From contig CAZKAB010000008.1 in NCBI GenBank assembly GCA_964550615.1, positions 1-53,216 of the forward strand: a DNA stretch of 53,216 nt. Reading direction: 5' to 3'. Positions within the stretch are counted from its first letter, which is position 1. Every line of letters begins with the position of its first letter. The notes below the pieces were generated by a model. It worked only from the letters and a program-made list of their open reading frames with translations. It was not told the DNA's origin and did not search any database. This stretch comes from an uncultured Thermotogae bacterium (lineage in GTDB: Bacteria; Bipolaricaulota; Bipolaricaulia; UBA7950; UBA9294). A program made the position numbers and the translations under genes. Below, in pieces: positions 1 to 27,008 of the stretch.

Positions 1-183
1 TTCACTTGTCAATGAGCTACACTTATACTATACCTTGAAAGTGATTGTTTCAGACAGTAGCCATCACTTACTACAGAGAACATCTCTTGCGCTTACCACG
101 CGTGTCTCCTCCCGCGCACAACGTAAGCCCTTAAGCGGCCATTTGTCTCGGTGCTCCCACGGAAGCGGCGTAGAATCAAGGGC

Positions 184-660
184 ATGAAGAGACGAAGAGA
201 AGAGTTGAAGCGCGTGCTCAGACTCCTGCAGTTGTCTGCACTGCTGATAGTGGCGTTTGTTTTGTACGGGTGCCTTGCTTCGTTCACTCCGATTGATATC
301 GCCGGCACGTGGAGCGGGACAATTGCGTGGACCGAAGGGCCAGCGGCCGGGTTCACAACGCCGATTATGCTGATACTCACGCAGGATGGAACCGATATTA
401 CTGGCGAGATTGGACTAACGGGGCCAGGATCAACGCCATTCTCCGTGCCGATCACAGAAGGAACGGCCGGCAGTAGCTCGTTCACCATAACCGGAAGTGG
501 AAGCATGGATGTGATAGCGCCACCGGTCGCCATTGCCATCAATCTGCATGGAGATAGCGATGGCCAGACGGTGACCGGGACCGGTACGCAGACGATCAAC
601 AGCGCGATTTACGCTTTCACTTGGACAGCCACTCTGACCGCGCCGCCGCCGGAGGACTGA
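184..660 (+). CDS. Hypothetical lipoprotein (beta-rich mature domain)
   Basis: ORF 151..660; ATG at 184 chosen (TAGAAT at 171-176 lies 7 nt upstream). Basic N-terminus, hydrophobic stretch and lipobox-like LYGC; Thr/Gly-rich mature part. Confidence 0.6.
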   Translation: MKRRREELKRVLRLLQLSALLIVAFVLYGCLASFTPIDIAGTWSGTIAWTEGPAAGFTTPIMLILTQDGTDITGEIGLTGPGSTPFSVPITEGTAGSSSFTITGSGSMDVIAPPVAIAINLHGDSDGQTVTGTGTQTINSAIYAFTWTATLTAPPPED

Positions 661-847
661 GCCGCGAACCGCATGAGGGGATTGTGCGGTGTGTGTGCGA
701 AGGCACGTCGTGTGAGTGCGGAATCGGGAGGCACCTCGCCTCAGGGCTCGATGTGAGTCATGTCGTCATCGTACGCGGATCCTTCCATCGTTTCAGTGAA
801 TAGAGCGATCTCTCGGCACGACGGCGCTAGCTGTCACGCTTGCGTGA

Positions 848-856
848 TGGTAGAAT
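848..856 (+). promoter_or_regulatory. Extended -10 promoter (TGgTAGAAT) for the gltX operon
   Basis: TGGTAGAAT at 848-856; SD GGGAG at 880-884 precedes ATG 892. Confidence 0.55.
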
Positions 857-891
857 GAATGCAGGTGAGGATAAGGAAAGGGAGTAATGAG

Positions 892-2175
892 ATGGTCAGA
901 GTGAGATTCGCCCCCAGCCCGACCGGATATTTGCACGTCGGCGGGGCGCGCACGGCGTTGTTCAACTGGCTGTACGCCCGTCATCACGACGGTGCGTTCA
1001 TCCTGCGGATAGAAGACACCGATCAAGAGCGCTCAACGCAGGAATCGATCGATCAGATTGCCGAGGCAATGCAGTGGTTGGGGCTTGATTGGGATGAGTA
1101 CTATCGCCAGACGGATCGCACCGACGTACATCAAAATGCGGCACGGCGGCTGCTGGATAGCGGCGCCGCCTATGAGCAGGATGGTGCATGGTGGTTTCGC
1201 ATCCCTGCGGGCGAGACGGTGGTGCGCGACGCACTGACCGGAGATGTGCGATTCAGTCACGACGAAATCAAGGATTTCGTCATCCGTCGCTCCGATGGGA
1301 GCTTCGTTTACAACTTTGTTGTAGTAGTGGATGACGCCGATATGGGAATCACCCACGTTATCCGCGGCGACGATCACCTGACGAACACTCCCAAACAGAT
1401 TCTCTTATATCGAGCGCTGGGAAGAGAGCTTCCTTCTTTCGCGCATCTGCCGATGATCCTCGGGCCGGATCGTACACGGCTTTCGAAGCGCCACGGAGTA
1501 ACCTCGGTACTCGAGTACAAACGCCGTGGATTCCTCCCCGAGACAATGGTCAACTTCTTCGCCCGCCTTGGCTGGTCGCACGGCGATCAGGAGGTGTTCA
1601 CGCGTGACGAGTTGATTCGGCTGTTCGATCTGGACGCCGTTGGGAGTTCCGCCGCTGTGTTCGATGAAGAGAAACTGCGCTGGCTGAATCAACAGCATCT
1701 CAAGACAGCCGATCCTGCGCGGTTGGTGGATCTGTTGCAACCGTTTGTCTGTTCAAGAGGGGCGGTTACTGAATCGATGTGGAAAGAAGCCGGAACGGAT
1801 CGACTCGCGCAAGGTGCGTCCTTGTTGCGTCACCGTTGCCACACCCTGGTTGATCTGGCGGAGATGATGTTGATCCTGTTCCCGGTTCCGATGGTGAGTG
1901 AAGTCGATCTTAATATCGATGAGCGCCAGGCCGAGCTAGTTTCAGCGGTATGCGATTCCTTTGCCGGCGCGAAGTCGTTTTCGCATGAGGATGTGGAAAC
2001 GCTGCTACGCGACACTCTGTCGGCAAGAGGGGCAAAGCTGAAAGATGTGGCTGCCGTGATCCGCGCCGCCGCAACGGGACGTGCCGTCGGTCCGGGGCTA
2101 TTCGACATTCTGTCGGTCATCGGAAACGATCTTGTCGCACAACGGCTGCGGGCGATTGAGGGAGCGGATCGATGA
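892..2175 (+). CDS. gltX: Glutamate--tRNA ligase (short form)
   Basis: VRVRFAPSPTGYLHVGG (HIGH), LRIEDTD, HVIRGDDH, RLSKR (KMSKS), C-terminal anticodon domain ending GPGLFDIL. Start set at ATG 892 from the SD. Confidence 0.97.
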   Translation: MVRVRFAPSPTGYLHVGGARTALFNWLYARHHDGAFILRIEDTDQERSTQESIDQIAEAMQWLGLDWDEYYRQTDRTDVHQNAARRLLDSGAAYEQDGAWWFRIPAGETVVRDALTGDVRFSHDEIKDFVIRRSDGSFVYNFVVVVDDADMGITHVIRGDDHLTNTPKQILLYRALGRELPSFAHLPMILGPDRTRLSKRHGVTSVLEYKRRGFLPETMVNFFARLGWSHGDQEVFTRDELIRLFDLDAVGSSAAVFDEEKLRWLNQQHLKTADPARLVDLLQPFVCSRGAVTESMWKEAGTDRLAQGASLLRHRCHTLVDLAEMMLILFPVPMVSEVDLNIDERQAELVSAVCDSFAGAKSFSHEDVETLLRDTLSARGAKLKDVAAVIRAAATGRAVGPGLFDILSVIGNDLVAQRLRAIEGADR

Positions 2176-3326
2176 GCCGTCGCTATTTGTGGATGGGTGC
2201 CGTTCTCAGCATCCTTGCTTCCGCGGCCGCATTTGCAGCGACGGCCGACTTGCACTATGTCGACTCGATACTCGATCTGACGAGCTACTATCATCCGCAA
2301 GGGATTCAGCTCTCTTCGCAACCGATTCCCGCTCTGACCGAGCCGAGCTATCACGGGACTGCAATGTATGGGCTTGTCCCGCTTGGAGGAATGCGGTTTC
2401 CGGTTGTACTGGATTCAGACGGCGGGAGCGGAACGCTGTATGTGGACGTTGATGGAAGCGGCGCCCTATCCGCGGCGAGCTGGATGAGTCACGGACAGGA
2501 CGGGAACTACCTGGCGAGCGTATCATTCCGGCTCTCCGGAGAAGCCGTTGATGAGAGACGCTATCGCGCCTTCCTCATGTGGAACCCGGATACGCCCAGC
2601 GTGCTTACCTACTGCCGTGACAACTACGAGAGCGGCGAAATCGATCTCGATGGTGCGATGTACAAGATTGCCATCATTGATGAAAACAGTGACGGGGAGT
2701 TCGACGATCTTTCAGGCGGAGTGTTTCTCATCGATCTTGATCGGGACGGAACGATTCTGGCGTCGCCGGATTCGCACGAGCGGTACAGGTTGGATGAGGC
2801 GTTCAACATTGGCGGCGAAGTATATGCTGTTACCAGGGTAACGGCCGACGGCTCGCAGATCGAAATCGACAAGAGCGACACGTGGGTTGATCCAAAGCCG
2901 CCGCTCGAGGTTGGATATCCTGCTCCGGACTTCTCACTCACCGATTATGAAGGCGACAAGATACAGCTTTCATCCCTGCAAGGAAAGATCGTACTGATAG
3001 ATTTCTGGGCGAGCTGGTGTTCGCCTTGTCGGGACGAGCTCGCGAATGTCGAAGCGATCGCCAACGAGTACGCCGATGACGGTGTTGTTGTTCTTGGAGT
3101 TGATATCGATCGAAACGAAGGGGCGTTTGCCGGCATCGTGTCATCGTTCGGGCTCACCTATCGTCAGATCTTTGATGGCGCCGACGGCCCAGTCTCTTCT
3201 CTGTATCGTGTTATCGGGATTCCGATGACATACCTGATCGATCGCCAAGGCATTATTCGCGGCAAGCGACTGCGGGGGGATACGCTGCGGCAGGCGATCG
3301 ACGGGCTTGTGGGAGAAGGTAAGTGA
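2172..3326 (+). CDS. Secreted TlpA-family disulfide reductase with a large N-terminal domain
   Basis: Signal peptide; C-terminal APDFSL...LIDFWASWCSPC...GIPMTYLIDRQG; DxDxDG-like motifs in the N-domain; ATGA overlap with gltX. Confidence 0.85.
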   Translation: MSRRYLWMGAVLSILASAAAFAATADLHYVDSILDLTSYYHPQGIQLSSQPIPALTEPSYHGTAMYGLVPLGGMRFPVVLDSDGGSGTLYVDVDGSGALSAASWMSHGQDGNYLASVSFRLSGEAVDERRYRAFLMWNPDTPSVLTYCRDNYESGEIDLDGAMYKIAIIDENSDGEFDDLSGGVFLIDLDRDGTILASPDSHERYRLDEAFNIGGEVYAVTRVTADGSQIEIDKSDTWVDPKPPLEVGYPAPDFSLTDYEGDKIQLSSLQGKIVLIDFWASWCSPCRDELANVEAIANEYADDGVVVLGVDIDRNEGAFAGIVSSFGLTYRQIFDGADGPVSSLYRVIGIPMTYLIDRQGIIRGKRLRGDTLRQAIDGLVGEGK

Positions 3327-4324
3327 GCTATCGGGCGAGTGTCCGAGCTATCTTGCTCTTGCTCGCCACATGTCTCATCACCGGTGCTGTCGCGTGGGCG
3401 CAGTCGCCGATCCTGAAGTTCACCGTTTCTCCCGATGACGTCTCACTTTCTCCTGGGGGGACTGCGGCAATTGAGGTAAGAGTCGACAACGGCTCCGTAT
3501 ATCAGGCTGACGACATCGCCGTGAGCTTGTCTCCGACCGGTGGGATTACACTTGATCCGTCCGAGGTGTCAGTAGTTGAGATCGCGCCGTTTGCTGCGAG
3601 CACCGTCGCTGCAAATCTGGTCGCATCCTCCTCTCTTGCGGAAGGTCGATACGGTCTATCCCTCGACGTGATATATACGTATTGCATTGATATCAGTTGT
3701 TTCCAAATTGTGGAACAGATTCCGCTTACGGTTGCCGTCAGTAAAACGGCAGTGGCTGCCCCGGTGGCGGTGCGCGTGCATCTCCCACCTTGGCTATTGC
3801 CCGGTGCGGGGGCGGTGCTAATTGCATTGGGATTGGGCCTGTGGCGATTCCGCGACCAACGTCTGCCCCTGTACGTAATCCTGACCGTTCTCGTCGTTGT
3901 GGGGCTGGCCTACGGCGTTTCCCGCGGCCAGCATGAACAAGCGCAAGAGATCGCGGCCGTACTCTGCACGTCGTGCGTAGGGATCGAATCGGCGGAGCCG
4001 GGAGCCCCTTCCCTAACGCCCGCGGGCTTGGCGGCTCTGGGAGGAGTCACTTCTGATGTTGACCTGATAGTCTTCTTCGCTCCATGGTGCCACACCTGTC
4101 CGTATGCGGAAGCGATGGTGGAGCAGATGGCGGCAGCGAACGAACACATCCACTACCAATTCATCGATGTCAGCACTCAACGTGATCTGGCGATGAAGCA
4201 CGGTGTCATACGTTCCAATCGGACTATCGTTCCGGCGATCGTCCGCACGGACACGGGTGAAGTGATATTTGGGATTGAAGATCTGGAGAGCCGCTTGCTT
4301 CACATGTTGGGAGTGGGGACATGA
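3323..4324 (+). CDS. Multi-domain membrane redox protein: Ig-like C-x4-C domain, 2 TM helices, CxxC-VGI motif, thioredoxin domain
   Basis: Signal peptide; YTYCIDISCF; two hydrophobic segments; VLCTSCVGIE; FFAPWCHTCP and TIVP cis-Pro loop; GTGA overlap with the upstream gene. Confidence 0.75.
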   Translation: MSYRASVRAILLLLATCLITGAVAWAQSPILKFTVSPDDVSLSPGGTAAIEVRVDNGSVYQADDIAVSLSPTGGITLDPSEVSVVEIAPFAASTVAANLVASSSLAEGRYGLSLDVIYTYCIDISCFQIVEQIPLTVAVSKTAVAAPVAVRVHLPPWLLPGAGAVLIALGLGLWRFRDQRLPLYVILTVLVVVGLAYGVSRGQHEQAQEIAAVLCTSCVGIESAEPGAPSLTPAGLAALGGVTSDVDLIVFFAPWCHTCPYAEAMVEQMAAANEHIHYQFIDVSTQRDLAMKHGVIRSNRTIVPAIVRTDTGEVIFGIEDLESRLLHMLGVGT

Positions 4325-5151
4325 GATTGTCGATCATGCGGAGGATAAGCCAGTTCTTCGGAATTGTACTCGGCTTGTTCGGAGCTACCGGGATCGGGAT
4401 GACGCACATTATCTTCCCCGGCCTTCACTGCTACGCCTGCCCGCTTGCGGTGACGATCTGCCCGATCGGGCTGATGCAGAATCTCGTGGTCTATGGAACG
4501 TTTCCCTACTTCTGGATCGGCGCGATTGTCGCCTATGGCTTGCTTGCCGGAAGAGGATTCTGCGGCTGGTTCTGCCCGTTCGGAACGTTGAACGATCTTC
4601 TGTCTTTCCGGCGCGTGCGCATCAGCAGGCCCATCTCATATTCCAAGTTTGTTGTGCTGGCGGGGACGGTAGTCGCTGCGTGGGCATTCGCCGACACCAT
4701 GTTCTGCAAAATATGCCCGGCCGCATCACTTGAGGCGTCGATCCCCTATCTCTTTCTAGGCGTGGCACATGTCAATCGCCCATTTGTCGTGCACATGATT
4801 ACGCTTGGCCTTACGCTACTGGGGATGTTGTTGATCGCGCGCTTCTGGTGCCGCTACCTGTGCCCAATGGGGGCGTTGCTTTCGCTGTTCAACCGCGTAA
4901 GCTTCCTTCATCTCACACTTGACACAAGCCGTTGCGGACGATGTAGCGATTGTGCCTCGTCCTGTCCGATGGGAATCAATCCGCACGAAGACCACGACGA
5001 TCACAACTGCATCAAGTGTGGGGAGTGCGCTTCCGCGTGCTCGTTTGACGCTCTCAAGCTGACATTTGCTCCGCAGATCACGCACGAACGGAACGCTCGG
5101 AAGGTTGCGGATGAACGACGCGCACAACAAGGATCAAGGGACGGATCGTAG
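4321..5151 (+). CDS. NapH/MauN-like membrane 4Fe-4S binding protein
   Basis: LHCYACP, FCGWFCPFG, FCKICPA, WCRYLCPMG, and two ferredoxin motifs CGRCSDCASSCP and CIKCGECASAC; several TM segments. Confidence 0.9.
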   Translation: MRLSIMRRISQFFGIVLGLFGATGIGMTHIIFPGLHCYACPLAVTICPIGLMQNLVVYGTFPYFWIGAIVAYGLLAGRGFCGWFCPFGTLNDLLSFRRVRISRPISYSKFVVLAGTVVAAWAFADTMFCKICPAASLEASIPYLFLGVAHVNRPFVVHMITLGLTLLGMLLIARFWCRYLCPMGALLSLFNRVSFLHLTLDTSRCGRCSDCASSCPMGINPHEDHDDHNCIKCGECASACSFDALKLTFAPQITHERNARKVADERRAQQGSRDGS

Positions 5152-6345
5152 CAGAATCGACGCGTAGACGGCACCAGTGATTATGAGCGTCAGTGCAATT
5201 GCGATCAGAATACCGACTGTGGTCGATGATGCGGGCTCCGCGCTGATTGTGTAGGCGGCGATTTCATACCCGAGCGGACGCCCTGGATAGGAAGGGTCTT
5301 CCGCCCATGCCTCCCAAGTCCATGTTCCCGCCTCGGATTGCGAGACAGTTTCTTTTCCCCAAATGAACGTTCCGTCCGACAACGGCCGCGCCGCCGGATA
5401 GAGGCTCTGTTTGGAGCGTGAGTAGTGAAGTGTCCCTCCTGAGGTCGAGGTGTGGTAGGCATAGCGTACATTGCCGCTTGGGTCGATCACGCGCGTGTAG
5501 AGAAAGAGCGGTGTCGCTCCGTCCGAGCCTTCTTGGACGGTCAGCGAACGCACCTGCGTCTGCCCAGCCTGAACGACCCCGTCCGGAGAGAACGACAATG
5601 AGATACGCAAATCTGACTGCAAAACGGCAGGGACCGGGCCGGACACGACCACGTAGCGGTCGATCGTGTACGACCCGAAAACGCCGTGATCGAGGGTAGT
5701 CTTCACGCCTGCGGAAGCAGCCGTGTCGCTGTTGTACGGATCGATAATTGTGTACGTGGCGGAGGCTTTCCCTGTAATTACCACCCAGTGACAGTCCTCG
5801 GTTTGGGCCGTTGTCCCATGGCAGTGGTTGCCCCAGTGGACACCACAGATGATCGGATACCCGTTCCGCAAGGATTGGTCAATCATCAGGCGAGCATCCG
5901 TTGCAAGTCCGTTCTCATTGTGGTTGACATATGTTGCTGTCGATATTTGCGGCGGTAGATTAGTCCATTCCAGACAACATGCACCCGAACCATCGCCGCA
6001 CTGGCCGTATCCGCCGTGTGTCTTCAGCCAGTCGTTCAGAATCCCCGGATCCATCCCCTTTTGAGTAGCGCCGGTGCAGGAAGAAGCCGCGGGTACGCTG
6101 AGTTCCACGCCGTAGTAGTCGAGGACCATGGCGAAGGACGTGATCAAGCATCCGGCAGATGCGACTGCGTCCGTGCAGCCGTTCGTTCCCATTGAACAAT
6201 TTCCCCAGTATCCGGTTGCGTTGATGTATGCCTGATTGAATGCGGGAACAGGGAGGCTGATGGTCTCTTGTTGCGCCGTTACGGGTACGACGATAAGAAA
6301 TGGGATGAAGGCGGCAAGAAGGACAAGATATGCTGCCTGCCTCAT
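5134..6345 (-). CDS. C39-like cysteine peptidase domain protein, secreted, with C-terminal membrane anchor
   Basis: Signal peptide; GCLITSFAMVLDYYG (Cys), HWVVITG (His), YTIIDP (Asp); C-terminal hydrophobic helix. Confidence 0.75.
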   Translation of the reverse strand: MRQAAYLVLLAAFIPFLIVVPVTAQQETISLPVPAFNQAYINATGYWGNCSMGTNGCTDAVASAGCLITSFAMVLDYYGVELSVPAASSCTGATQKGMDPGILNDWLKTHGGYGQCGDGSGACCLEWTNLPPQISTATYVNHNENGLATDARLMIDQSLRNGYPIICGVHWGNHCHGTTAQTEDCHWVVITGKASATYTIIDPYNSDTAASAGVKTTLDHGVFGSYTIDRYVVVSGPVPAVLQSDLRISLSFSPDGVVQAGQTQVRSLTVQEGSDGATPLFLYTRVIDPSGNVRYAYHTSTSGGTLHYSRSKQSLYPAARPLSDGTFIWGKETVSQSEAGTWTWEAWAEDPSYPGRPLGYEIAAYTISAEPASSTTVGILIAIALTLIITGAVYASILLRSVP

Positions 6346-7691
6346 AACGCCTGTTCTTCTCCCTCCCCCGATTGGGCGCGAATTGAGCGGGCCGCGATCA
6401 GCCCGCTGACGGCGGAGTAGATGATGCCACGGCAGTGACCGGACGCGTCACCGGCGACATAGAATCGGGGTATGGCCGTCTCCATCGTGGGTCTCACCGG
6501 ATAGCGCGTATCGTAGAATTTGATCTCCGGTGCATATAGGAAAGTATTGTCCGCGGTCAGGCCGGGGATGATGTTGTCCAACTGCTCCAGCCCTTCCAGC
6601 AGGTTGACAACAACGCGATCCGGAAGCGCCATGGAAATGTCACCCGGCGTTACGTCACTCAGTGTGGGGGAGATTGTCGCCCGCCGCAGCCGTTCCGTTG
6701 TGGAACGACGTCCGTTGTTTAGGTCTTTCAATCGCTGGATAATCGGCCTGCCGCCGCCAATCGTTGTTGCCAGTTTCGCAATCGCGCGGCCGTATTCGGT
6801 CGTATCCTCTACGGGGTTGGTAAGCTCGATGTGCGAGAGAAGTGCGAAATTGGTGTTGTCCGTCTTTTCGTCGTTCTCCGCATGTCCATTCACCAGCGTA
6901 AAATCGTCGTAGCTCTCCTTCACGACAAACCCGTGCGGATTTGTGCAGAAGGTGCGAACCATGTCATCGTAGGTGGCTGTGCGCACGCGTAGCTTGGCGT
7001 CGTACATCACCTGTTCGATGGGAGTGTAGATCTCGGCAGGGAATTCGACTCTTACGCCAACGTCAATCGGACCGTACTCGGTGATAATCCCCATCTTTCC
7101 CGCTTCCTCGCGCAGCCAATAAGCACCGGCACGGCCGGGGGCGGCGATGACGTAGCGTGCTTCGATATCCTCTGTCCCCGCAAGGATAAACGTATCTCCT
7201 CTTCGTTCGATGTGCTCAACCCTGTTCTCGAGCGAAGCGTGAGTCCCCTCCTCGACGAGATGCTGATAAAACCTATCGATGATCTGCCGGACGTGTGACG
7301 TACCCATGTGACGCTGTCGACCGCTGATGAATTCGATCCCGTATCGGCTGGCCATCTTCTTCAGCTCAAGCAACGCATGTTCGTCCTCGCCGGAGTATTT
7401 CTTTGGGGCGCCGAATGCCGTAAATGTGTCGTCGATTTGATCTATGTATGCCTGTATCACGGACTCGTTGTGGCCTATGCTTGCCGGGTCGCCGCCGATT
7501 TGCGGGGTCAGGTTGAGCTTGCCGTCGGAAAACGCGCCCGCTCCGCCTACTCCGAAACAAATGTGCGTCCGTTCGGTCGGTGCCTTGCCACGATCGATCA
7601 GCAGTACCTCAAGGCCGCTTCCGATAAGTTCCTTGGCAGCGAACAATCCCGCCGGTCCAGCGCCAAGTATTGCTACGTCCACCCGTCTCAT
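6342..7691 (-). CDS. FAD-dependent oxidoreductase (COG2509-like, function unknown)
   Basis: GAGPAG dinucleotide fold; GVGGAGAFSDGKL, RHMGT, VRTFCTNPHG, NGH, YAPEIKFY, GDASG. Start moved to ATG 7691, which overlaps the HAD stop as ATGA. Confidence 0.85.
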   Translation of the reverse strand: MRRVDVAILGAGPAGLFAAKELIGSGLEVLLIDRGKAPTERTHICFGVGGAGAFSDGKLNLTPQIGGDPASIGHNESVIQAYIDQIDDTFTAFGAPKKYSGEDEHALLELKKMASRYGIEFISGRQRHMGTSHVRQIIDRFYQHLVEEGTHASLENRVEHIERRGDTFILAGTEDIEARYVIAAPGRAGAYWLREEAGKMGIITEYGPIDVGVRVEFPAEIYTPIEQVMYDAKLRVRTATYDDMVRTFCTNPHGFVVKESYDDFTLVNGHAENDEKTDNTNFALLSHIELTNPVEDTTEYGRAIAKLATTIGGGRPIIQRLKDLNNGRRSTTERLRRATISPTLSDVTPGDISMALPDRVVVNLLEGLEQLDNIIPGLTADNTFLYAPEIKFYDTRYPVRPTMETAIPRFYVAGDASGHCRGIIYSAVSGLIAARSIRAQSGEGEEQAL

Positions 7692-8413
7692 AGGAGTATC
7701 CTCCGTAGTTCGCTCAATTGAGCGATCGTCATGTCTGCCGCGGTCCTTTCTGGATCCTTCTCCCCATCGGAAGTGACCCACACCGACCACATGCCGGCGT
7801 CGTGTGCTCCAATTATATCTGCCTGATATGAATTGCCTACGTATACGGCTTGCTCGGGGGCTGCCTGTACGTGCCTCAGCATTGTAGCAAACACGCGTCG
7901 ATCTGGCTTGTGGATTCCGGAATCACCCGAGACAAGTATGTGGCTAAAACTCGACTGTATTCTCAGCGCGTCAATCTTGTGCCATTGCAGGTCGCTCGGG
8001 CCGTTTGTCAGCAACCCGAGCGTGTAACGCTTGCCGAGATCGGCAAGGAGCGGGCGTGCGCCGTCGACAAGGCTAAGGGAATCTGCGCGCAAACCTGCAT
8101 AGAGACGTGACAGCGACTGGGCGAGTGTCCGGTCATCGACCCCATTCTCAGACAATAGGCGCGTCCATATCCGATCCCGCAATACTTCGGTGCTCTCATG
8201 ATCAGACTCCATTTCGAACCACAACGCATAGTATCGCGAAGCGGCCTGTTCCGGATCTCCGATCAGGTTATCTCTGCGGTGAACAAGAGACAGGGCAGCG
8301 GTCATTGCTTCCGCCACGCTCGTCTTGTAGTCGCACAGAGTTCCGTCGAGGTCGAAGATGACCGCGGACAAGTTGCGCGGAAATGACGGTTGAATGGCAT
8401 CCTCATTGCGCAT
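7688..8413 (-). CDS. HAD-superfamily hydrolase (subfamily IA)
   Basis: IFDLDGTL, LLTNG, HKPDRRVF, YVGNSYQADIIGA motifs. Confidence 0.9.
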   Translation of the reverse strand: MRNEDAIQPSFPRNLSAVIFDLDGTLCDYKTSVAEAMTAALSLVHRRDNLIGDPEQAASRYYALWFEMESDHESTEVLRDRIWTRLLSENGVDDRTLAQSLSRLYAGLRADSLSLVDGARPLLADLGKRYTLGLLTNGPSDLQWHKIDALRIQSSFSHILVSGDSGIHKPDRRVFATMLRHVQAAPEQAVYVGNSYQADIIGAHDAGMWSVWVTSDGEKDPERTAADMTIAQLSELRRILL

Positions 8414-8488
8414 ATCCTGTATATGTTAACCTGCTTGGCATGCGGGTACATCCCAAGAAGGTCTTTTCGACGGAAACAAGGGAGCGAA

Positions 8489-9049
8489 ATGCGGATCATC
8501 GGAGGGAGCAGTCGAGGGCGGAAACTCGTGGAGTGGCAAGCTGCTGGAATAAGGCCGATGCGCGACTTTGTGCGAACGGCGTTGTTCAACATTATTGGCG
8601 AGACGATATTGGAGGCACGCTTTCTCGATCTGTTTTGCGGAACAGGAAGCGTTGGCTTGGAGGCGCTCTCTCGTGGGGCGCGCGAAGTCACGTTCATCGA
8701 TCAATCTGCGGATGCGTGCGGGATTGTGCGCCGCAACCTCGATCAGCTAGGGTTTCTTGATCGGGCGCGCGTGCTGCATGTAGACTATGTCGAAGGGATC
8801 GACTACCTGGAGCGACGTGGCAAGAAGTTCGATCTTGTCTTTGTCGGTCCTCCGTACGACAAGGGACTTGCCGACGCTGCGCTGCGGCTGTTTTCGGAAC
8901 GGTCGATCCTTGATCCTGACGCGGTCGTTATCACCGAGGTGAGAAACAAGACGACCTTGGATCAACAGTATGGGCTACTCAAACAGATTGACAAGCGGGT
9001 GTATGGAGACAATGTGCTTGATTTCTATCGCGCGACGACCGGCAGATAG
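8489..9049 (+). CDS. rsmD: 16S rRNA m2G966 methyltransferase
   Basis: MRIIGGSSRGRKL, FLDLFCGTGSVGLEALSRGA, FVGPPY, YG near the C-terminus; SD GGGAG before ATG 8489. Confidence 0.92.
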   Translation: MRIIGGSSRGRKLVEWQAAGIRPMRDFVRTALFNIIGETILEARFLDLFCGTGSVGLEALSRGAREVTFIDQSADACGIVRRNLDQLGFLDRARVLHVDYVEGIDYLERRGKKFDLVFVGPPYDKGLADAALRLFSERSILDPDAVVITEVRNKTTLDQQYGLLKQIDKRVYGDNVLDFYRATTGR

Positions 9050-23717: not shown

Positions 23718-24416
23718 GTGAACAGGATCATCGTCGGTTTGATGGCAATTGTCCTGCTGGCTGGGGTTTCGTTGCTGGCGGCGCCGGTGATAACGGCTGG
23801 CGGCGCAGTGTACGATTTCGGCACAGTGATAGAGGGAGCGTTCGTTACGCACACATTTGTGCTGACCAATTCAGGTGATGCGACGCTGACAATCACGCGC
23901 GTGACAACGAGCTGCGGTTGCACGACAACCGATCTCTCGCAGACCAGCCTTGCGCCCGGAGATTCGGTCAATCTCGACGTCAATTTCGACTCGGTCGGCT
24001 TTGGCGGCCAGACAGTGACCAAGCTCATCTATGTAGAGTCGAACGATCCCACACAACCGAAGTTCGTGCTTCAATTGAAGGGGAATGTGAATCGCGCGCA
24101 GCCATACAACATTGCCTGCGGCGACCTGAACTACCTCTTCTATCTGCTGGTCGATCTACGAGATCAAGATTCATACGCATCATCGCACATGCTTGGTGCG
24201 GTCAATATTCCCTACAGCGAGCTGACCGATTGGATGGACCGCCTCCCTACAGGGGTGCTGATCGTACTCTATGATGAAGATGGTACGAAGAGCGATCAAG
24301 CGGCGCAGATGCTGAATAAGAACGGGTTTCCTGAGGCGAAAAGCCTTCTGGGTGGGTTCGACGAGTGGACGCGGATATTCAAAGACAAGTTTGTCATCTC
24401 TGACCAAGATAAGTAA
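23718..24416 (+). CDS. Secreted DUF1573 plus rhodanese-like domain protein (copy 1)
   Basis: Signal peptide; FVLTNSGD...TSCGCT...LAPG; LVDLR...HMLGAVNIP...YDEDG...LLGGFDEW. Confidence 0.85.
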   Translation: MNRIIVGLMAIVLLAGVSLLAAPVITAGGAVYDFGTVIEGAFVTHTFVLTNSGDATLTITRVTTSCGCTTTDLSQTSLAPGDSVNLDVNFDSVGFGGQTVTKLIYVESNDPTQPKFVLQLKGNVNRAQPYNIACGDLNYLFYLLVDLRDQDSYASSHMLGAVNIPYSELTDWMDRLPTGVLIVLYDEDGTKSDQAAQMLNKNGFPEAKSLLGGFDEWTRIFKDKFVISDQDK

Positions 24417-24594
24417 GACAACAGAGCACTCTGGTGAGGCGAGGAAGGCGAAACAGCCACTCGCCTCATTCTGTGCACCGCAGAGACAAGCAGGCTCTGG
24501 TTGGAGGAACGGCGAAGCTACGTTACCATCTTTGGACCGCGCACGGCAAGGGCTCTACTTGTCCTGCTGGAATGAGTGGCGCTTACCGGTGTCC

Positions 24595-24624
24595 TTGCAG
24601 CTCGAATGAGCTTCAGTATAAATT
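24595..24624 (+). promoter_or_regulatory. Possible internal sigma70 promoter before copy 2
   Basis: TTGCAG (24595-600), 18 nt, TAAATT (24619-24); SD AAGGAGG before ATG 24661. Confidence 0.4.
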
Positions 24625-24660
24625 CTAAGGATCTCATCGCAATGACAAGGAGGATTTGAG

Positions 24661-25359
24661 ATGAAGAGAGCGGCGGTTCTCACGTTGGCGGTCTTTGTAT
24701 TTTGCAGTGTTGTTGTAAGCGCTACGCCGAAGATACAAGTGGATGCTGATACATACAACTTCGAAAGTGCCGTTGCCGGAACGTTTGTGACGCACAAGTT
24801 CGTTATCACCAACGTAGGTGACACTCCGTTATCGATCAGAAACGTTCGAACCAGCTGTGGATGCACCGTCGTTGATCTCACTCAGAAGGTTCTTGCGCCC
24901 GGGAAATCGGTTGATCTGGAAGCGAAACTAAACACAAACGGGTATCTTGGAAAGGTGGCGAAAACCGTATACGTGGAGAGCGATGATCAGACGAATCCGA
25001 CACTCGTCCTTCACCTGAGCGGTGTGGTTGAGAAGGCGAAGCCGTTCCACATGAGCGTCGGTGACCTTGAGTACATGTTCTACCTCCTAATCGATCTGCG
25101 TACGCCGGACGAGTATGCATCTGCGCATCTACTGGGAGCGATCAATGTCCCGTATGATGAGATCGGCGGTTGGATCGATCGCTTTCCCAAGAACGTCTTG
25201 CTGGTCTTCTACGACGAAGATGGAACCCTTGGAGATCAGGTGGCACAGATGCTGAACGCCGACGGTTTCGCAGATGCCAAGAGCCTGATGGGTGGTTTCG
25301 ACGAGTGGGCCGACGTGCTGGGCGATCAGTTTGTTGTCCATAGTATGGCCGATGAATAG
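24661..25359 (+). CDS. Secreted DUF1573 plus rhodanese-like domain protein (copy 2)
   Basis: Tandem paralog: TSCGCT, LIDLR, HLLGAINVP, YDEDG, LMGGFDEW. Confidence 0.85.
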   Translation: MKRAAVLTLAVFVFCSVVVSATPKIQVDADTYNFESAVAGTFVTHKFVITNVGDTPLSIRNVRTSCGCTVVDLTQKVLAPGKSVDLEAKLNTNGYLGKVAKTVYVESDDQTNPTLVLHLSGVVEKAKPFHMSVGDLEYMFYLLIDLRTPDEYASAHLLGAINVPYDEIGGWIDRFPKNVLLVFYDEDGTLGDQVAQMLNADGFADAKSLMGGFDEWADVLGDQFVVHSMADE

Positions 25360-25409
25360 GCGACGTGGCCGGCTGCGCGCAACGGACCGGCGAAAGGAGC
25401 GGCCCTAGA

Positions 25410-26504
25410 GTGAACAAAACAGTAGTTGTATTGATAGCGGTGCTGCTTTCGTATGCGTTTGTTGCAGCTGCAAGCGAAGTCAATATCGTCTATTTTTACG
25501 AAAACGGCTGTCCTCACTGTGCACGCATCGACGAATTTCTCCAGCGCATGCAGCAAACCTATGAGGAAATCGTGATCGACAGCTATGAGATTCATGCGGA
25601 AGGCGCTATTGCGCTCCTGCATCGCTTAGAAGCGTTGTACGGAGAAGAGCAGTTGGATGTGCCGATCGTGTTTATCGACGACCAGTGCTTCCACGGAGCA
25701 GGTCGGGCGGTTGAGTACAACATCGAACAGGAGATCAGGCAGGCGGTCGATAGCGGGTCGACGGCGCCGCTCGATCGACTGGCGCAATCTGAGCACGCGA
25801 ATTCCACTGCCACTCGCAAGCTCACGATACCTGCTGTTCTGGCCGCCGCTGCTGTCGATGCTGTCAATCCATGCGCATGCGCAGTGTTGATCCTACTTCT
25901 TGGAACGCTTATCGCGGCAGGAAAGCGGCGCAAGATAATCGGTGCCGGTCTCGCGTTTACCGCGGCCACGTACATCTCATACCTATTGATGGGCCTTGGG
26001 CTGTACACGGCCATTCAAGCGACGCGGCTGCAGCACATGATCTATCTTATCGTTGCCTGTCTGGCGATTGTCGTTGGTCTATGGGAGATGAAGGACTACC
26101 TGTGGTACGGGCGCTGGTTTACGATTGAAGTACCGAACTCATGGCGTCCGGCCCTTAAGCGGATCACGTCGAGCGTGACGTCCGTTCCAGGTGCATTTGC
26201 GGTCGGCTTCCTGGTAAGCCTATTCCTCCTGCCGTGTACGTCAGGTCCGTACATAATCATCCTCGGCCTCCTTGCACAGACGACGACGCGTGAGTACGCG
26301 ATCATGATGCTGGCACTCTACAATTTCATCTTCGTGCTTCCGTTCATCATCATCACGTTAGGGGTTGCCTTTGGTTTCACCACGACCGCGAGGGCGGAGA
26401 AGTGGCGACGTGAGCGATTGGACAAGCTGCATTTGATCACTGGTATTATCATGGTAGCGCTGGGGATCACCATGCTGGTTCTGATGCAGTTTGGATATAT
26501 GTAG
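25410..26504 (+). CDS. Thioredoxin-like domain fused to a CcdA/DsbD-beta membrane domain
   Basis: FYENGCPHC; TM domain with DAVNPCACAV and LLPCTSGPY; GTG 25410 after AAGGAG. Confidence 0.88.
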   Translation: MNKTVVVLIAVLLSYAFVAAASEVNIVYFYENGCPHCARIDEFLQRMQQTYEEIVIDSYEIHAEGAIALLHRLEALYGEEQLDVPIVFIDDQCFHGAGRAVEYNIEQEIRQAVDSGSTAPLDRLAQSEHANSTATRKLTIPAVLAAAAVDAVNPCACAVLILLLGTLIAAGKRRKIIGAGLAFTAATYISYLLMGLGLYTAIQATRLQHMIYLIVACLAIVVGLWEMKDYLWYGRWFTIEVPNSWRPALKRITSSVTSVPGAFAVGFLVSLFLLPCTSGPYIIILGLLAQTTTREYAIMMLALYNFIFVLPFIIITLGVAFGFTTTARAEKWRRERLDKLHLITGIIMVALGITMLVLMQFGYM

Positions 26505-26513
26505 GAGGATTGG

Positions 26514-27008
26514 ATGACGAAGAGACGTATATTGTTGATGCTTCTGGGTCTTGTTGCACTGATCGGCCCGGCATTATTTGCGCAGGTCCAGACGGAATCG
26601 CAGACACCCACGCCAATGATACTCGTATTCTACGAAGACGGCTGTCCAAACTGCATACGCATGGAAGGGCTCTTGGACAACCTCCTCACCGACCACGATG
26701 ACGTTACAGTTGTGCGCTATGAGATAAACGCTCCCGGAAGCACGGCGCTATTGTGGAAGCTATCTGCGCATTATGGGATTGTGACTACGCAGGTTCCAGT
26801 GATATTCGTGGGAGATAAGGCAATTGTGGGGGCGGGTCGGACACAGGAAATCACCTTGCGAACGGCAATCGGCGACTGTATCAGCCAAGGGTGTCCATCG
26901 CCGCTCGAATATGTAGAAGGAGGCTGGAGCGTACTGCGCGACCTGCTCGCCCTCGGCGCGTTCATCGGCCTGTTTGTTGCGCTGCTCCTATTTCAAAGCG
27001 GTTCATGA
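26514..27008 (+). CDS. Membrane-anchored thioredoxin/glutaredoxin-like protein
   Basis: Signal peptide; FYEDGCPNC, VPVIFVGD, C-x3-C (CISQGC); C-terminal TM helix. Confidence 0.8.
   Translation: MTKRRILLMLLGLVALIGPALFAQVQTESQTPTPMILVFYEDGCPNCIRMEGLLDNLLTDHDDVTVVRYEINAPGSTALLWKLSAHYGIVTTQVPVIFVGDKAIVGAGRTQEITLRTAIGDCISQGCPSPLEYVEGGWSVLRDLLALGAFIGLFVALLLFQSGS

Follow-up and report, generated by a model that had tools for sequence, protein, structure and literature searches.

A probable thiol-redox operon in a Bipolaricaulota contig

We analyzed a 53,216-nucleotide (nt) stretch of DNA, here called the window, from an uncultured Thermotogae bacterium that GTDB places in the Bipolaricaulota (assembly GCA_964550615.1, contig CAZKAB010000008.1, positions 1 to 53,216 of the forward strand). 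Our subject is an open reading frame (ORF) whose product combines a signal peptide, an immunoglobulin (Ig)-like domain, two transmembrane (TM) helices, a C-x-S-C motif, and a thioredoxin (Trx) domain, and which we refer to as the CxSC protein. Its gene lies between one for an exported TlpA/ResA-like protein and one for a NapH-like membrane polyferredoxin (Table 1). The tlpA-like stop overlaps the start of the CxSC gene by 4 bp (GTGA), the CxSC stop overlaps the napH-like start by 4 bp (ATGA), and gltX overlaps the tlpA-like gene in like manner, a chain of overlaps that leads us to read the four genes as one operon. No Rfam family was found in positions 1-9000, the operon region contains no convincing internal promoter or terminator, and the antisense ORFs in the region have no support.

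Table 1. Features of the redox operon and of a second thiol-redox cluster in the window (aa, amino acids)
Feature	Position (nt)	Strand	Description
CxSC protein	3323..4324	+	333 aa, GTG start; signal peptide, Ig-like domain, TM1, TM2, CxSC module, Trx domain
Sec-type signal peptide	3323..3400	+	aa 1-26; hydrophobic stretch 5-25; putative cleavage AWA/Q
Ig-like beta-sandwich, extracytoplasmic	3401..3760	+	aa 27-146; C121/C126 pair bridges the last beta-hairpin
TM1	3791..3853	+	aa ~157-177, out to in; cytoplasmic loop RFRDQR follows
CD1871A-like module	3863..3988	+	TM2 (aa 181-200, in to out) plus amphipathic segment QHEQAQEIAAVLCTSCVGIE; C215/C218 on outer face
Trx-fold domain, extracytoplasmic	4049..4312	+	aa ~243-330; active site WCHTCP, cis-Pro P304
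NapH-like membrane polyferredoxin (partner)	4321..5151	+	276 aa
Partner motif A, HCYACP-x5-CP	4417-4482	+	predicted outer face
Partner motif B, DTxFCKxCP	4693-4719	+	predicted outer face
Partner CX3CP motifs	4561-4578, 4849-4866	+	cytoplasmic face
Partner 4Fe-4S motifs, two	4933-4968, 5008-5043	+	motif
TlpA/ResA-like exported protein	2172..3326	+	~240-aa N-terminal domain plus Trx domain, WCSPC
DUF1573-rhodanese fusions, two exported paralogs	23718-24416, 24661-25359	+	DUF1573 Ig-like, TSCGCT motif
Glutaredoxin-like domain fused to CcdA/DsbD_TM-like membrane domain	25365-26504	+	CPHC; PF02683 25-26 bits, just under cut-off
Grx/Trx-like protein	26514-27008	+	CPNC and C-terminal TM helix

Architecture, topology, and conservation of the CxSC protein

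An initial annotation, made from the sequence alone, had described this ORF as a four-module fusion resembling a DsbD rebuilt without its membrane beta domain, and every feature that it listed was recovered at its coordinates. The six cysteines form three pairs: C121 (codon at nt 3683) and C126 (3698) in YTYCIDISCF of the Ig-like domain, C215 (3965) and C218 (3974) in VLCTSCVGI after the second TM helix, and C256 (4088) and C259 (4097) in WCHTCP of the Trx domain. Hydrophobic stretches run from ~157-176 and 181-200, with RFRDQR between them. An AlphaFold2 monomer model built on 43 homologs (mean predicted local distance difference test score, pLDDT, 83.5) gives an N-terminal helix, taken as the signal peptide, followed by a beta-sandwich at 31-139 with C121/C126 across its last hairpin (block-mean pLDDT mostly 86-93 over aa 31-120), helices at 158-177, 181-200, and 203-217, the last of which contains CTSC, and a Trx fold at 246-328 (block-mean pLDDT 83-98). 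The likening of the C-terminal domain to the thioredoxin-like gamma domain of DsbD was borne out by this model, by hidden Markov models (HMMs; ~21 bits for Pfam Thioredoxin and Thioredoxin_3, 36 bits for TIGR02187), and by matches to Trx/PDO entries in a PDB search. The domain has the hallmarks of the Trx superfamily, namely the fold itself, a CxxC at the N-terminus of helix 1, and a cis-Pro loop. At the other end of the protein, Q27, the residue after AWA, is invariant in the 43-homolog alignment; a lipoprotein reading of LATC in the signal peptide was rejected because C17 is not conserved.

The signal peptide, the K/R-rich loop between the TM helices (mean K+R 2.3 vs D+E 0.1 in the 43 homologs), and the acidic segment after TM2 together indicate that TM1 runs from out to in and TM2 from in to out. 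Homologs with a single TM helix have a basic N-terminus ahead of it and are N-in, the same orientation as TM2. All three cysteine pairs are predicted to be extracytoplasmic. The initial annotation had proposed that a short CxxC hairpin stands in for DsbD-beta, a proposal that the topology contradicts: C215 and C218 both lie outside, after TM2, and there is no cysteine in TM1, the RFRDQR loop, or TM2, so the hairpin itself cannot do the transmembrane electron transfer of DsbD-beta. Crossing of the membrane is most likely the task of the neighboring NapH-like polyferredoxin, a protein that did not figure in that account.

A homolog search with the CxSC protein returned 137 relatives of the same length at E<=0.001; among the matches listed (120 of 137), identities range from 37 to 88% and all source names point to Candidatus Bipolaricaulota. 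All six cysteines are invariant in the 43 homologs (36-88% identity), and the most conserved stretch of that alignment is QHEQAQGIAAVLCTSCVGIEE, directly after TM2. Distant relatives came from an HMM search run in full over 1.8 billion cluster representatives. Across this wider superfamily (19-52% identity), C215, S217, C218, G220, C256, C259, P304 (the cis-Pro), and G317 are invariant, as is C-x-S-C-x-G as a motif. Cysteine conservation in the family is far beyond chance. Four short homologs of 152-168 aa have only one TM helix, the CxSC motif, and the Trx domain; the core of the family is therefore TM-CxSC-Trx, with the Ig-like domain an optional addition. A further homolog of 284 aa joins the C-terminal part of the CxSC protein to the start of the NapH-like protein through a scrambled junction, and is most likely a frameshift or assembly error rather than a genuine fusion.

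The NapH-like partner

The partner scores 56.6 bits against PF12801 (Fer4_5; cut-off 22) and falls below the NapH/MauN cut-offs, with 86.4 bits for NF007013 (cut-off 234) and 71.6 for TIGR02163 (cut-off 213), so we call it NapH-like rather than NapH. By the positive-inside rule, its N-terminus, the loops bearing the CX3CP motifs, and the ferredoxin domain are cytoplasmic, and two extra cysteine motifs sit outside, in loops that are rather hydrophobic. Distant partners (36-44% identity) keep the two CX3CP and the two 4Fe-4S motifs, and they also keep both outer motifs in the forms P-x-L-x-C-Y-A-C-P-x5-C-P-x-G-x-x-Q and D-T-x-F-C-K-x-C. No solved homolog of the membrane module was found by sequence.

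The two genes are tightly coupled. Wherever the gene directly downstream of a CxSC homolog could be identified, it was a Fer4_5 gene, often with a 1-4 bp overlap; Pfam assigned it in four Bipolaricaulota loci and in five of six distant lineages, and in the sixth the contig ends within the downstream gene, which carries the partner motifs. Among 101 Bipolaricaulota genomes, 51 have the CxSC protein and 50 the partner, with both in 49 (always adjacent) and neither in another 49. The discordant genomes number 3 of the 101, and two of these matches are at contig ends. The pairing of a CxxC protein with a NapH-like protein recurs in archaea, Clostridia, Acidobacteria, and others, where the CxxC protein is usually a peptide of ~45 aa.

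Some loci carry additional features around the partner. In a distant low-GC lineage (locus L010, 605-2683), the NapH-like protein is 692 aa long, with a long C-terminal extension that bears further Cys-rich motifs. A gene for BacA/UppP (undecaprenyl-diphosphatase) follows the NapH-like gene, with an overlapping start, in this locus (L010, 2680-3447) and in two from Bipolaricaulota (L001, 7805-8584; L002, 7763-8551). The window has no BacA/UppP gene there; what comes next is a gene of the opposite strand.

The CxSC module as a CD1871A-type peptide

The initial annotation pointed to CD1871A-type models for the residues around CTSC, and this lead was right in substance. NF040920 (CD1871A) aligns end to end with TM2 and the CxSC motif at 10.3-13.4 bits, below its cut-off of 32 bits. 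In a search of the genome, it gave the CxSC protein 12.6 bits and unrelated TM proteins similar scores. Membership by HMM alone was dropped because such scores are weak and non-specific, and the link was restored by gene context and profile-profile evidence. With hhalign, the family segment matched CD1871A-type peptides at 98% probability (E 1.7e-13, 39 columns), a score inflated by the picking of those peptides for their CxxC-x-G motif. For gene context, we collected 80 loci of the NapH-like partner subfamily from named genomes of many phyla and tabulated the upstream ORF in 79. An ORF with CxxC-[IVLMT]-G-[ILMFV] lies within ~200 nt upstream of the NapH-like gene in 58 of the 79. The greater part of these (41 of 58) are peptides of ~45 aa ending in ...CL(E/D/S)CIGIG; the other 17 continue after the motif with a Trx tail of ~112 aa and come from, among others, Bipolaricaulota, a Methanobacteriota archaeon, and Methanofastidiosum. 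NF040920 scores form a gradient from 50-68 bits in small upstream peptides (two Clostridia loci and one Acidobacteriota locus) to 13 bits in the CxSC protein, with lower values upstream also in Gaiellales (31), an unclassified bacterial metagenome-assembled genome (17), and an archaeon (10). Bona fide CD1871A peptides hold the position of the CxSC gene, directly upstream of the NapH-like gene, in the Clostridia and Acidobacteria loci. On gene context and profile-profile comparison, and not on HMM score alone, we identify TM2 and CxSC as a divergent CD1871A-family module.

Eight loci from Planctomycetota, Sedimentisphaerales, and Verrucomicrobia have, upstream of the NapH-like match, a single-TM protein of ~85-150 aa in place of the CxxC peptide. 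It ends in ...(K/R)xTY(T/S)GExPxxCP(T/S), with a single C-terminal cysteine, and may represent a different partner family for the same NapH-like membrane engine.

The N-terminal Ig-like domain

The likeness of the N-terminal domain to DsbD-alpha, as first annotated, holds in part: the domain is an Ig-like sandwich with a conserved Y-x-x-C-x4-6-C on its last hairpin, and no homology to DsbD-alpha was detected. The spacing itself differs, with C-x4-C in the CxSC protein vs C-x5-C in Escherichia coli DsbD-alpha. Pfam DsbD_N (PF11412) gave no match on the CxSC protein (E<=1), in the six-frame translated genome (E<=1), or on 10 distant homologs (E<=10), and recovered E. coli DsbD at 129.8 bits as a control. 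A profile of 18 N-domains found no nDsbD chain among PDB sequences at E<=10, in a library that includes nDsbD entries 1VRS, 1JPE, 1L6P, 3PFU, 6DPS, and 2K0R; its best matches, themselves weak, were to Ig-like accessory domains, those of sialidase and of a GH20 enzyme, and relatives gave weak NPCBM_assoc/CARDB matches. Foldseek likewise placed no nDsbD within the top 50 for the predicted domain, which comprised complement MG domains, TRAP subunits, PapD-like chaperones, and glycosidase Ig domains. An hhalign comparison with E. coli DsbD-alpha aligned 30 columns, the hairpin only (LSLDVIYTYC-IDISCFQIVE), at 11.6% probability, with the limits that the DsbD homologs retrieved were all enterobacterial at at least 78% identity and that the PDB alignments printed E. 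coli variants only. With PF11412, the PDB profile, hhalign (whole-family and N-domain profiles), and Foldseek all negative or confined to the hairpin, homology to DsbD-alpha is not supported, and we retain an analogy at the level of the motif.

Residues ~31-117 also match multi-repeat surface proteins, whose repeats do not have the cysteine hairpin. We take the domain to be a generic CARDB/NEW3-type Ig fold in which only the cysteine hairpin resembles DsbD-alpha, and our reading is that a common surface Ig repeat probably gained a DsbD-alpha-type hairpin by convergence. Ten distant homologs share the N-domain with its Y-x-x-C-x4-6-C hairpin, and in two others the cysteine pair sits elsewhere in the domain. 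C121 and C126 are invariant in every hairpin-type N-domain, down to ~10-25% domain identity. Y118, Y120, F127, and Q128 are conserved around the pair, and N56, D63, P89, and F90 elsewhere in the domain. This invariance, together with the conserved flanks, favors a functional role for the pair.

The upstream TlpA/ResA-like protein and other genes of the window

The gene upstream of the CxSC gene scores 82 bits against PF00578, 58 bits against PF08534, and 97 bits against the ResA model NF002854. TlpA-CxSC fusions occur in several records (P0261/P0262, L028-L030, and L040). In one Bipolaricaulota family (f3), the CxSC sequence lies within open frames of ~700-900 aa that begin with the TlpA-like protein, and the match begins right after the signal peptide. 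A phmmer scan of the 80 partner loci with the TlpA domain found an adjacent TlpA-like ORF in 37, on the same strand in 35. This ORF usually abuts the CxxC or NapH-like gene, in Bipolaricaulota, archaea, Clostridia, Acidobacteria, Cloacimonadota, and others. From this linkage, the TlpA/ResA-like protein is a likely client of the CxSC protein. Its N-terminal domain (2172-2900 in the window) has no Pfam family except faint EF-hand-like matches at aa 186-195 (DxDxDG-type loops).

Downstream of the operon, on the minus strand (5134-8413), are genes for a membrane-anchored C39-like peptidase, an FAD-dependent protein (FAD-depend_C), and a HAD hydrolase. Of three distant Bipolaricaulota loci that we inspected, each has the peptidase and the hydrolase behind the redox operon, and two also have the FAD-dependent protein there; this synteny beyond the operon partly reflects phylogenetic closeness. 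Farther along the plus strand, the window contains a second thiol-redox cluster (23718-27008; Table 1). The only PF02683-like match in the genome (25827-26477) falls within it, in the gene at 25365-26504.

A proposed reductive relay

We lean slightly toward the view that the CxSC protein serves a membrane redox complex of two proteins as its outward-facing thiol-relay subunit, with a reductive electron path. Together with the NapH-like protein, it would probably pass reducing power outward along an unstudied route that needs neither DsbD nor CcdA. In evolutionary terms, a CD1871A-type peptide of ~45 aa may have gained a C-terminal Trx domain and, by way of an extra TM helix, a secreted N-terminal Ig-like domain with a cysteine pair of its own. 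In the working complex, a low-potential cytoplasmic donor of the ferredoxin type would reduce the NapH-like partner at its two cytoplasmic [4Fe-4S] clusters. Electrons would pass from these to the CX3CP motifs at the inner face and on to the outer-face cysteine motifs (CYACP..CP and FCKxCP), which would hand them to C215/C218 of the CxSC protein. From there, they would reach the Trx pair C256/C259, possibly then the Ig-domain pair C121/C126, and finally the upstream-encoded TlpA/ResA-like oxidoreductase and its envelope clients. Functionally, such a relay would mirror the DsbD path from gamma to alpha to CcmG, with the step of DsbD-beta taken by an Fe-S membrane protein. The proposal stands on the architecture, the cysteine conservation, the predicted topology, the gene coupling, and the co-occurrence of the two genes; we infer the direction of flow, the donor, the contact between the subunits, and the redox activity of each pair.

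Several observations weigh against this view. The region around CxSC has pLDDT below 50 in the AlphaFold2 monomer model, and the model of the partner (12-sequence alignment, mean pLDDT 52.7) is too poor for Foldseek or for judging cysteine proximity, so that the two models give no support to a contact between the proteins. The NF040920 score below cut-off and the inflated hhalign comparison count on the same side. Many homologs do without the N-domain, so the core mechanism does not require its cysteine pair. In addition, a separate gene of the genome is CcdA-like (25365-26504 in the window), and a classical CcdA-like route could reduce the Trx domain instead. Lastly, NapH proper is regarded as a quinol dehydrogenase, and the partner may accordingly be quinone-linked or work in the oxidative direction.

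That last point leads to the alternative of an oxidative pathway, in which a DsbA-like Trx domain would make disulfides in exported proteins; CxSC and the NapH-like protein would re-oxidize it and deliver the electrons to a quinone or to an acceptor in the cytoplasm, in the manner of DsbB or VKOR. A membrane-proximal CxxC beside a Trx domain does recall VKOR-Trx and DsbB. The module is, however, associated with proteins of the TlpA/ResA type, which are typically reductive, its hosts are anaerobes (among them Clostridia, Bathyarchaeia, and Methanofastidiosum), many of them probably without quinones, and a DsbB-like oxidase would not need a cytoplasmic two-cluster ferredoxin domain. We consider this direction unlikely, even though NapH is regarded as a quinol-interacting subunit (PMC8238504; PMC5928378). 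A self-contained reduced DsbD, whose two-TM CxxC hairpin would itself take electrons from cytoplasmic thioredoxin and supply the gamma-like and alpha-like domains across the membrane, can draw on the module order (Ig with a cysteine pair, membrane CxxC, Trx), which resembles DsbD alpha-beta-gamma, and on the likeness of the hairpin motif to TYQGC-x5-CYPP of DsbD-alpha. It is nonetheless highly improbable: with CxSC outside and the helices and their loop free of cysteine, nothing faces the cytoplasm, neither PF02683 nor PF11412 matches, the short homologs have a single TM helix, and the NapH-like neighbor is obligate.

Two further alternatives keep the pair of proteins and change what it does. 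The complex may be reductive as proposed, but with an Ig-domain pair that is structural or inert, the domain then being a spacer or client-binding module and the Trx domain reducing clients directly. This would fit the absence of the N-domain from the four short homologs, the displaced pair in two others, the derivation of the domain from a common surface Ig repeat without these cysteines, and the failure to find DsbD-alpha homology. We nevertheless hold it to be rather less probable than the relay as proposed: the pair is invariant across all hairpin-type domains and its flanks are conserved, and structural disulfides would be unusual in exported proteins of strict anaerobes. Alternatively, the CxxC motifs and the NapH-like protein may serve to reduce or move a metal, Cu(II) for example, with thiol-disulfide exchange secondary. 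The analogy is CcoG, a NapH-like cupric reductase; proteins of the TlpA type serve copper-centre assembly, and CxxC and CP motifs are many here. Set against this, the Trx domain carries the canonical CxxC and cis-Pro of thiol-disulfide oxidoreductases, and there is no copper chaperone, Sco, or P-type ATPase among the called neighbors, making metal handling a poor candidate.

Beyond this one locus, we suggest more tentatively, and with rather less confidence than we place in the relay itself, that a NapH-like polyferredoxin and a CD1871A-type CxxC module may constitute a third class of transmembrane disulfide reductase, one that is Fe-S-based, independent of DsbD/CcdA, supplied by ferredoxin-type donors, and widespread in anaerobic bacteria and archaea, and that the Trx and Ig extension of the Bipolaricaulota convergently re-creates the gamma-to-alpha relay of DsbD. 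It is a substantial possibility that the engine of the relay belongs to a new class. The reducing power of the envelope serves cytochrome c and copper-centre maturation, the repair of methionine sulfoxide and sulfenic acid, and disulfide isomerization, and it is known through one protein family, DsbD/CcdA/ScsB, fed by cytoplasmic thioredoxin. If our reading is true, the NapH-like/CxxC/thioredoxin operon would deliver it by another mechanism, one that probably draws on the ferredoxin pool of anaerobes. CD1871A-family peptides would then acquire their first assigned function, as would a large orphan branch of the NapH-like proteins. Specific to the window is that the CxxC peptide is joined both to a Trx domain and to a cysteine-bearing Ig domain. 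In the Bipolaricaulota form, all the soluble relay domains, and in some cases even the TlpA client, are fused to the CxxC module, which spells out the probable order of the relay, and a single polypeptide that carries the relay domains suits cysteine trapping.

Comparison with known systems

NapH-like proteins have been presented as modular units of transmembrane electron transfer, supplying flavinylated domains or mediators outside the cytosol (PMC8238504), and their CX3CP motifs have been discussed as either redox disulfides or cluster ligands, a choice left open (PMC5928378). The literature yielded general accounts of NapH-like modularity, and nothing on CD1871A or on NapH-like proteins paired with TlpA, CcdA, ResA, or Trx. 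The partner shares with NapH, NosR, RdhC (PceC), and CcoG the 4-TM module, the two CX3CP motifs, and the cytoplasmic two-cluster ferredoxin domain (PF12801). It differs in its extra outer-face cysteine motifs, in having no FMN-binding domain, in having no NapG or reductase genes nearby, and in an extracytosolic mediator that is a CxxC/Trx protein, not a flavinylated domain or NapG.

Like the CD1871A peptides, the CxSC protein has one TM helix followed by G-(E/Q)-x8-A-x-x-(I/V/L)-C-x-x-C-(I/V)-G-(I/L), and it is encoded upstream of the same NapH-like subfamily. In the peptides, however, the motif is C-terminal in a protein of ~45 aa, whereas here it is internal and reads C-x-S-C-x-G-[IL]-E, with a Trx domain of ~110 aa after it and a TM helix and an Ig domain before it. 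The CcdA-ResA/TlpA/Etrx systems of Gram-positive bacteria also place a membrane reductant conduit beside an exported TlpA/ResA-like thioredoxin, with the role as envelope reductant being a putative one in our case. CcdA is a 6-TM transporter with two cysteines, fed by cytoplasmic thioredoxin; the conduit here would consist of an Fe-S protein and a CxxC TM module, and a CcdA-like gene exists separately in the same genome.

A close functional parallel would be DsbD of E. coli, with ScsB/DipZ, built from an alpha domain (Ig, Cys103/Cys109), a beta domain (8-TM, PF02683), and a gamma domain (Trx). The CxSC protein resembles it in its exported Ig-like domain with Y-x-x-C-xN-C on the last hairpin, its exported Trx domain with CxxC, its probable client of the TlpA/CcmG type, and its three cysteine pairs in one membrane protein. 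It differs in lacking a DsbD_TM beta domain and any cytoplasm-facing cysteine, having instead two Cys-free TM helices with no PF02683 match and a membrane step that we assign to a separate Fe-S protein; its N-domain is not detectably homologous to DsbD_N and has C-x4-C rather than C-x5-C. A periplasmic Trx domain with CxxC is common to both, but because neither the DsbD_N nor the DsbD_TM model matches, we do not count the CxSC protein as a member of the DsbD family. The resemblance is best read as convergence, which suggests that the DsbD-alpha-like cysteine hairpin of an Ig domain arose twice.

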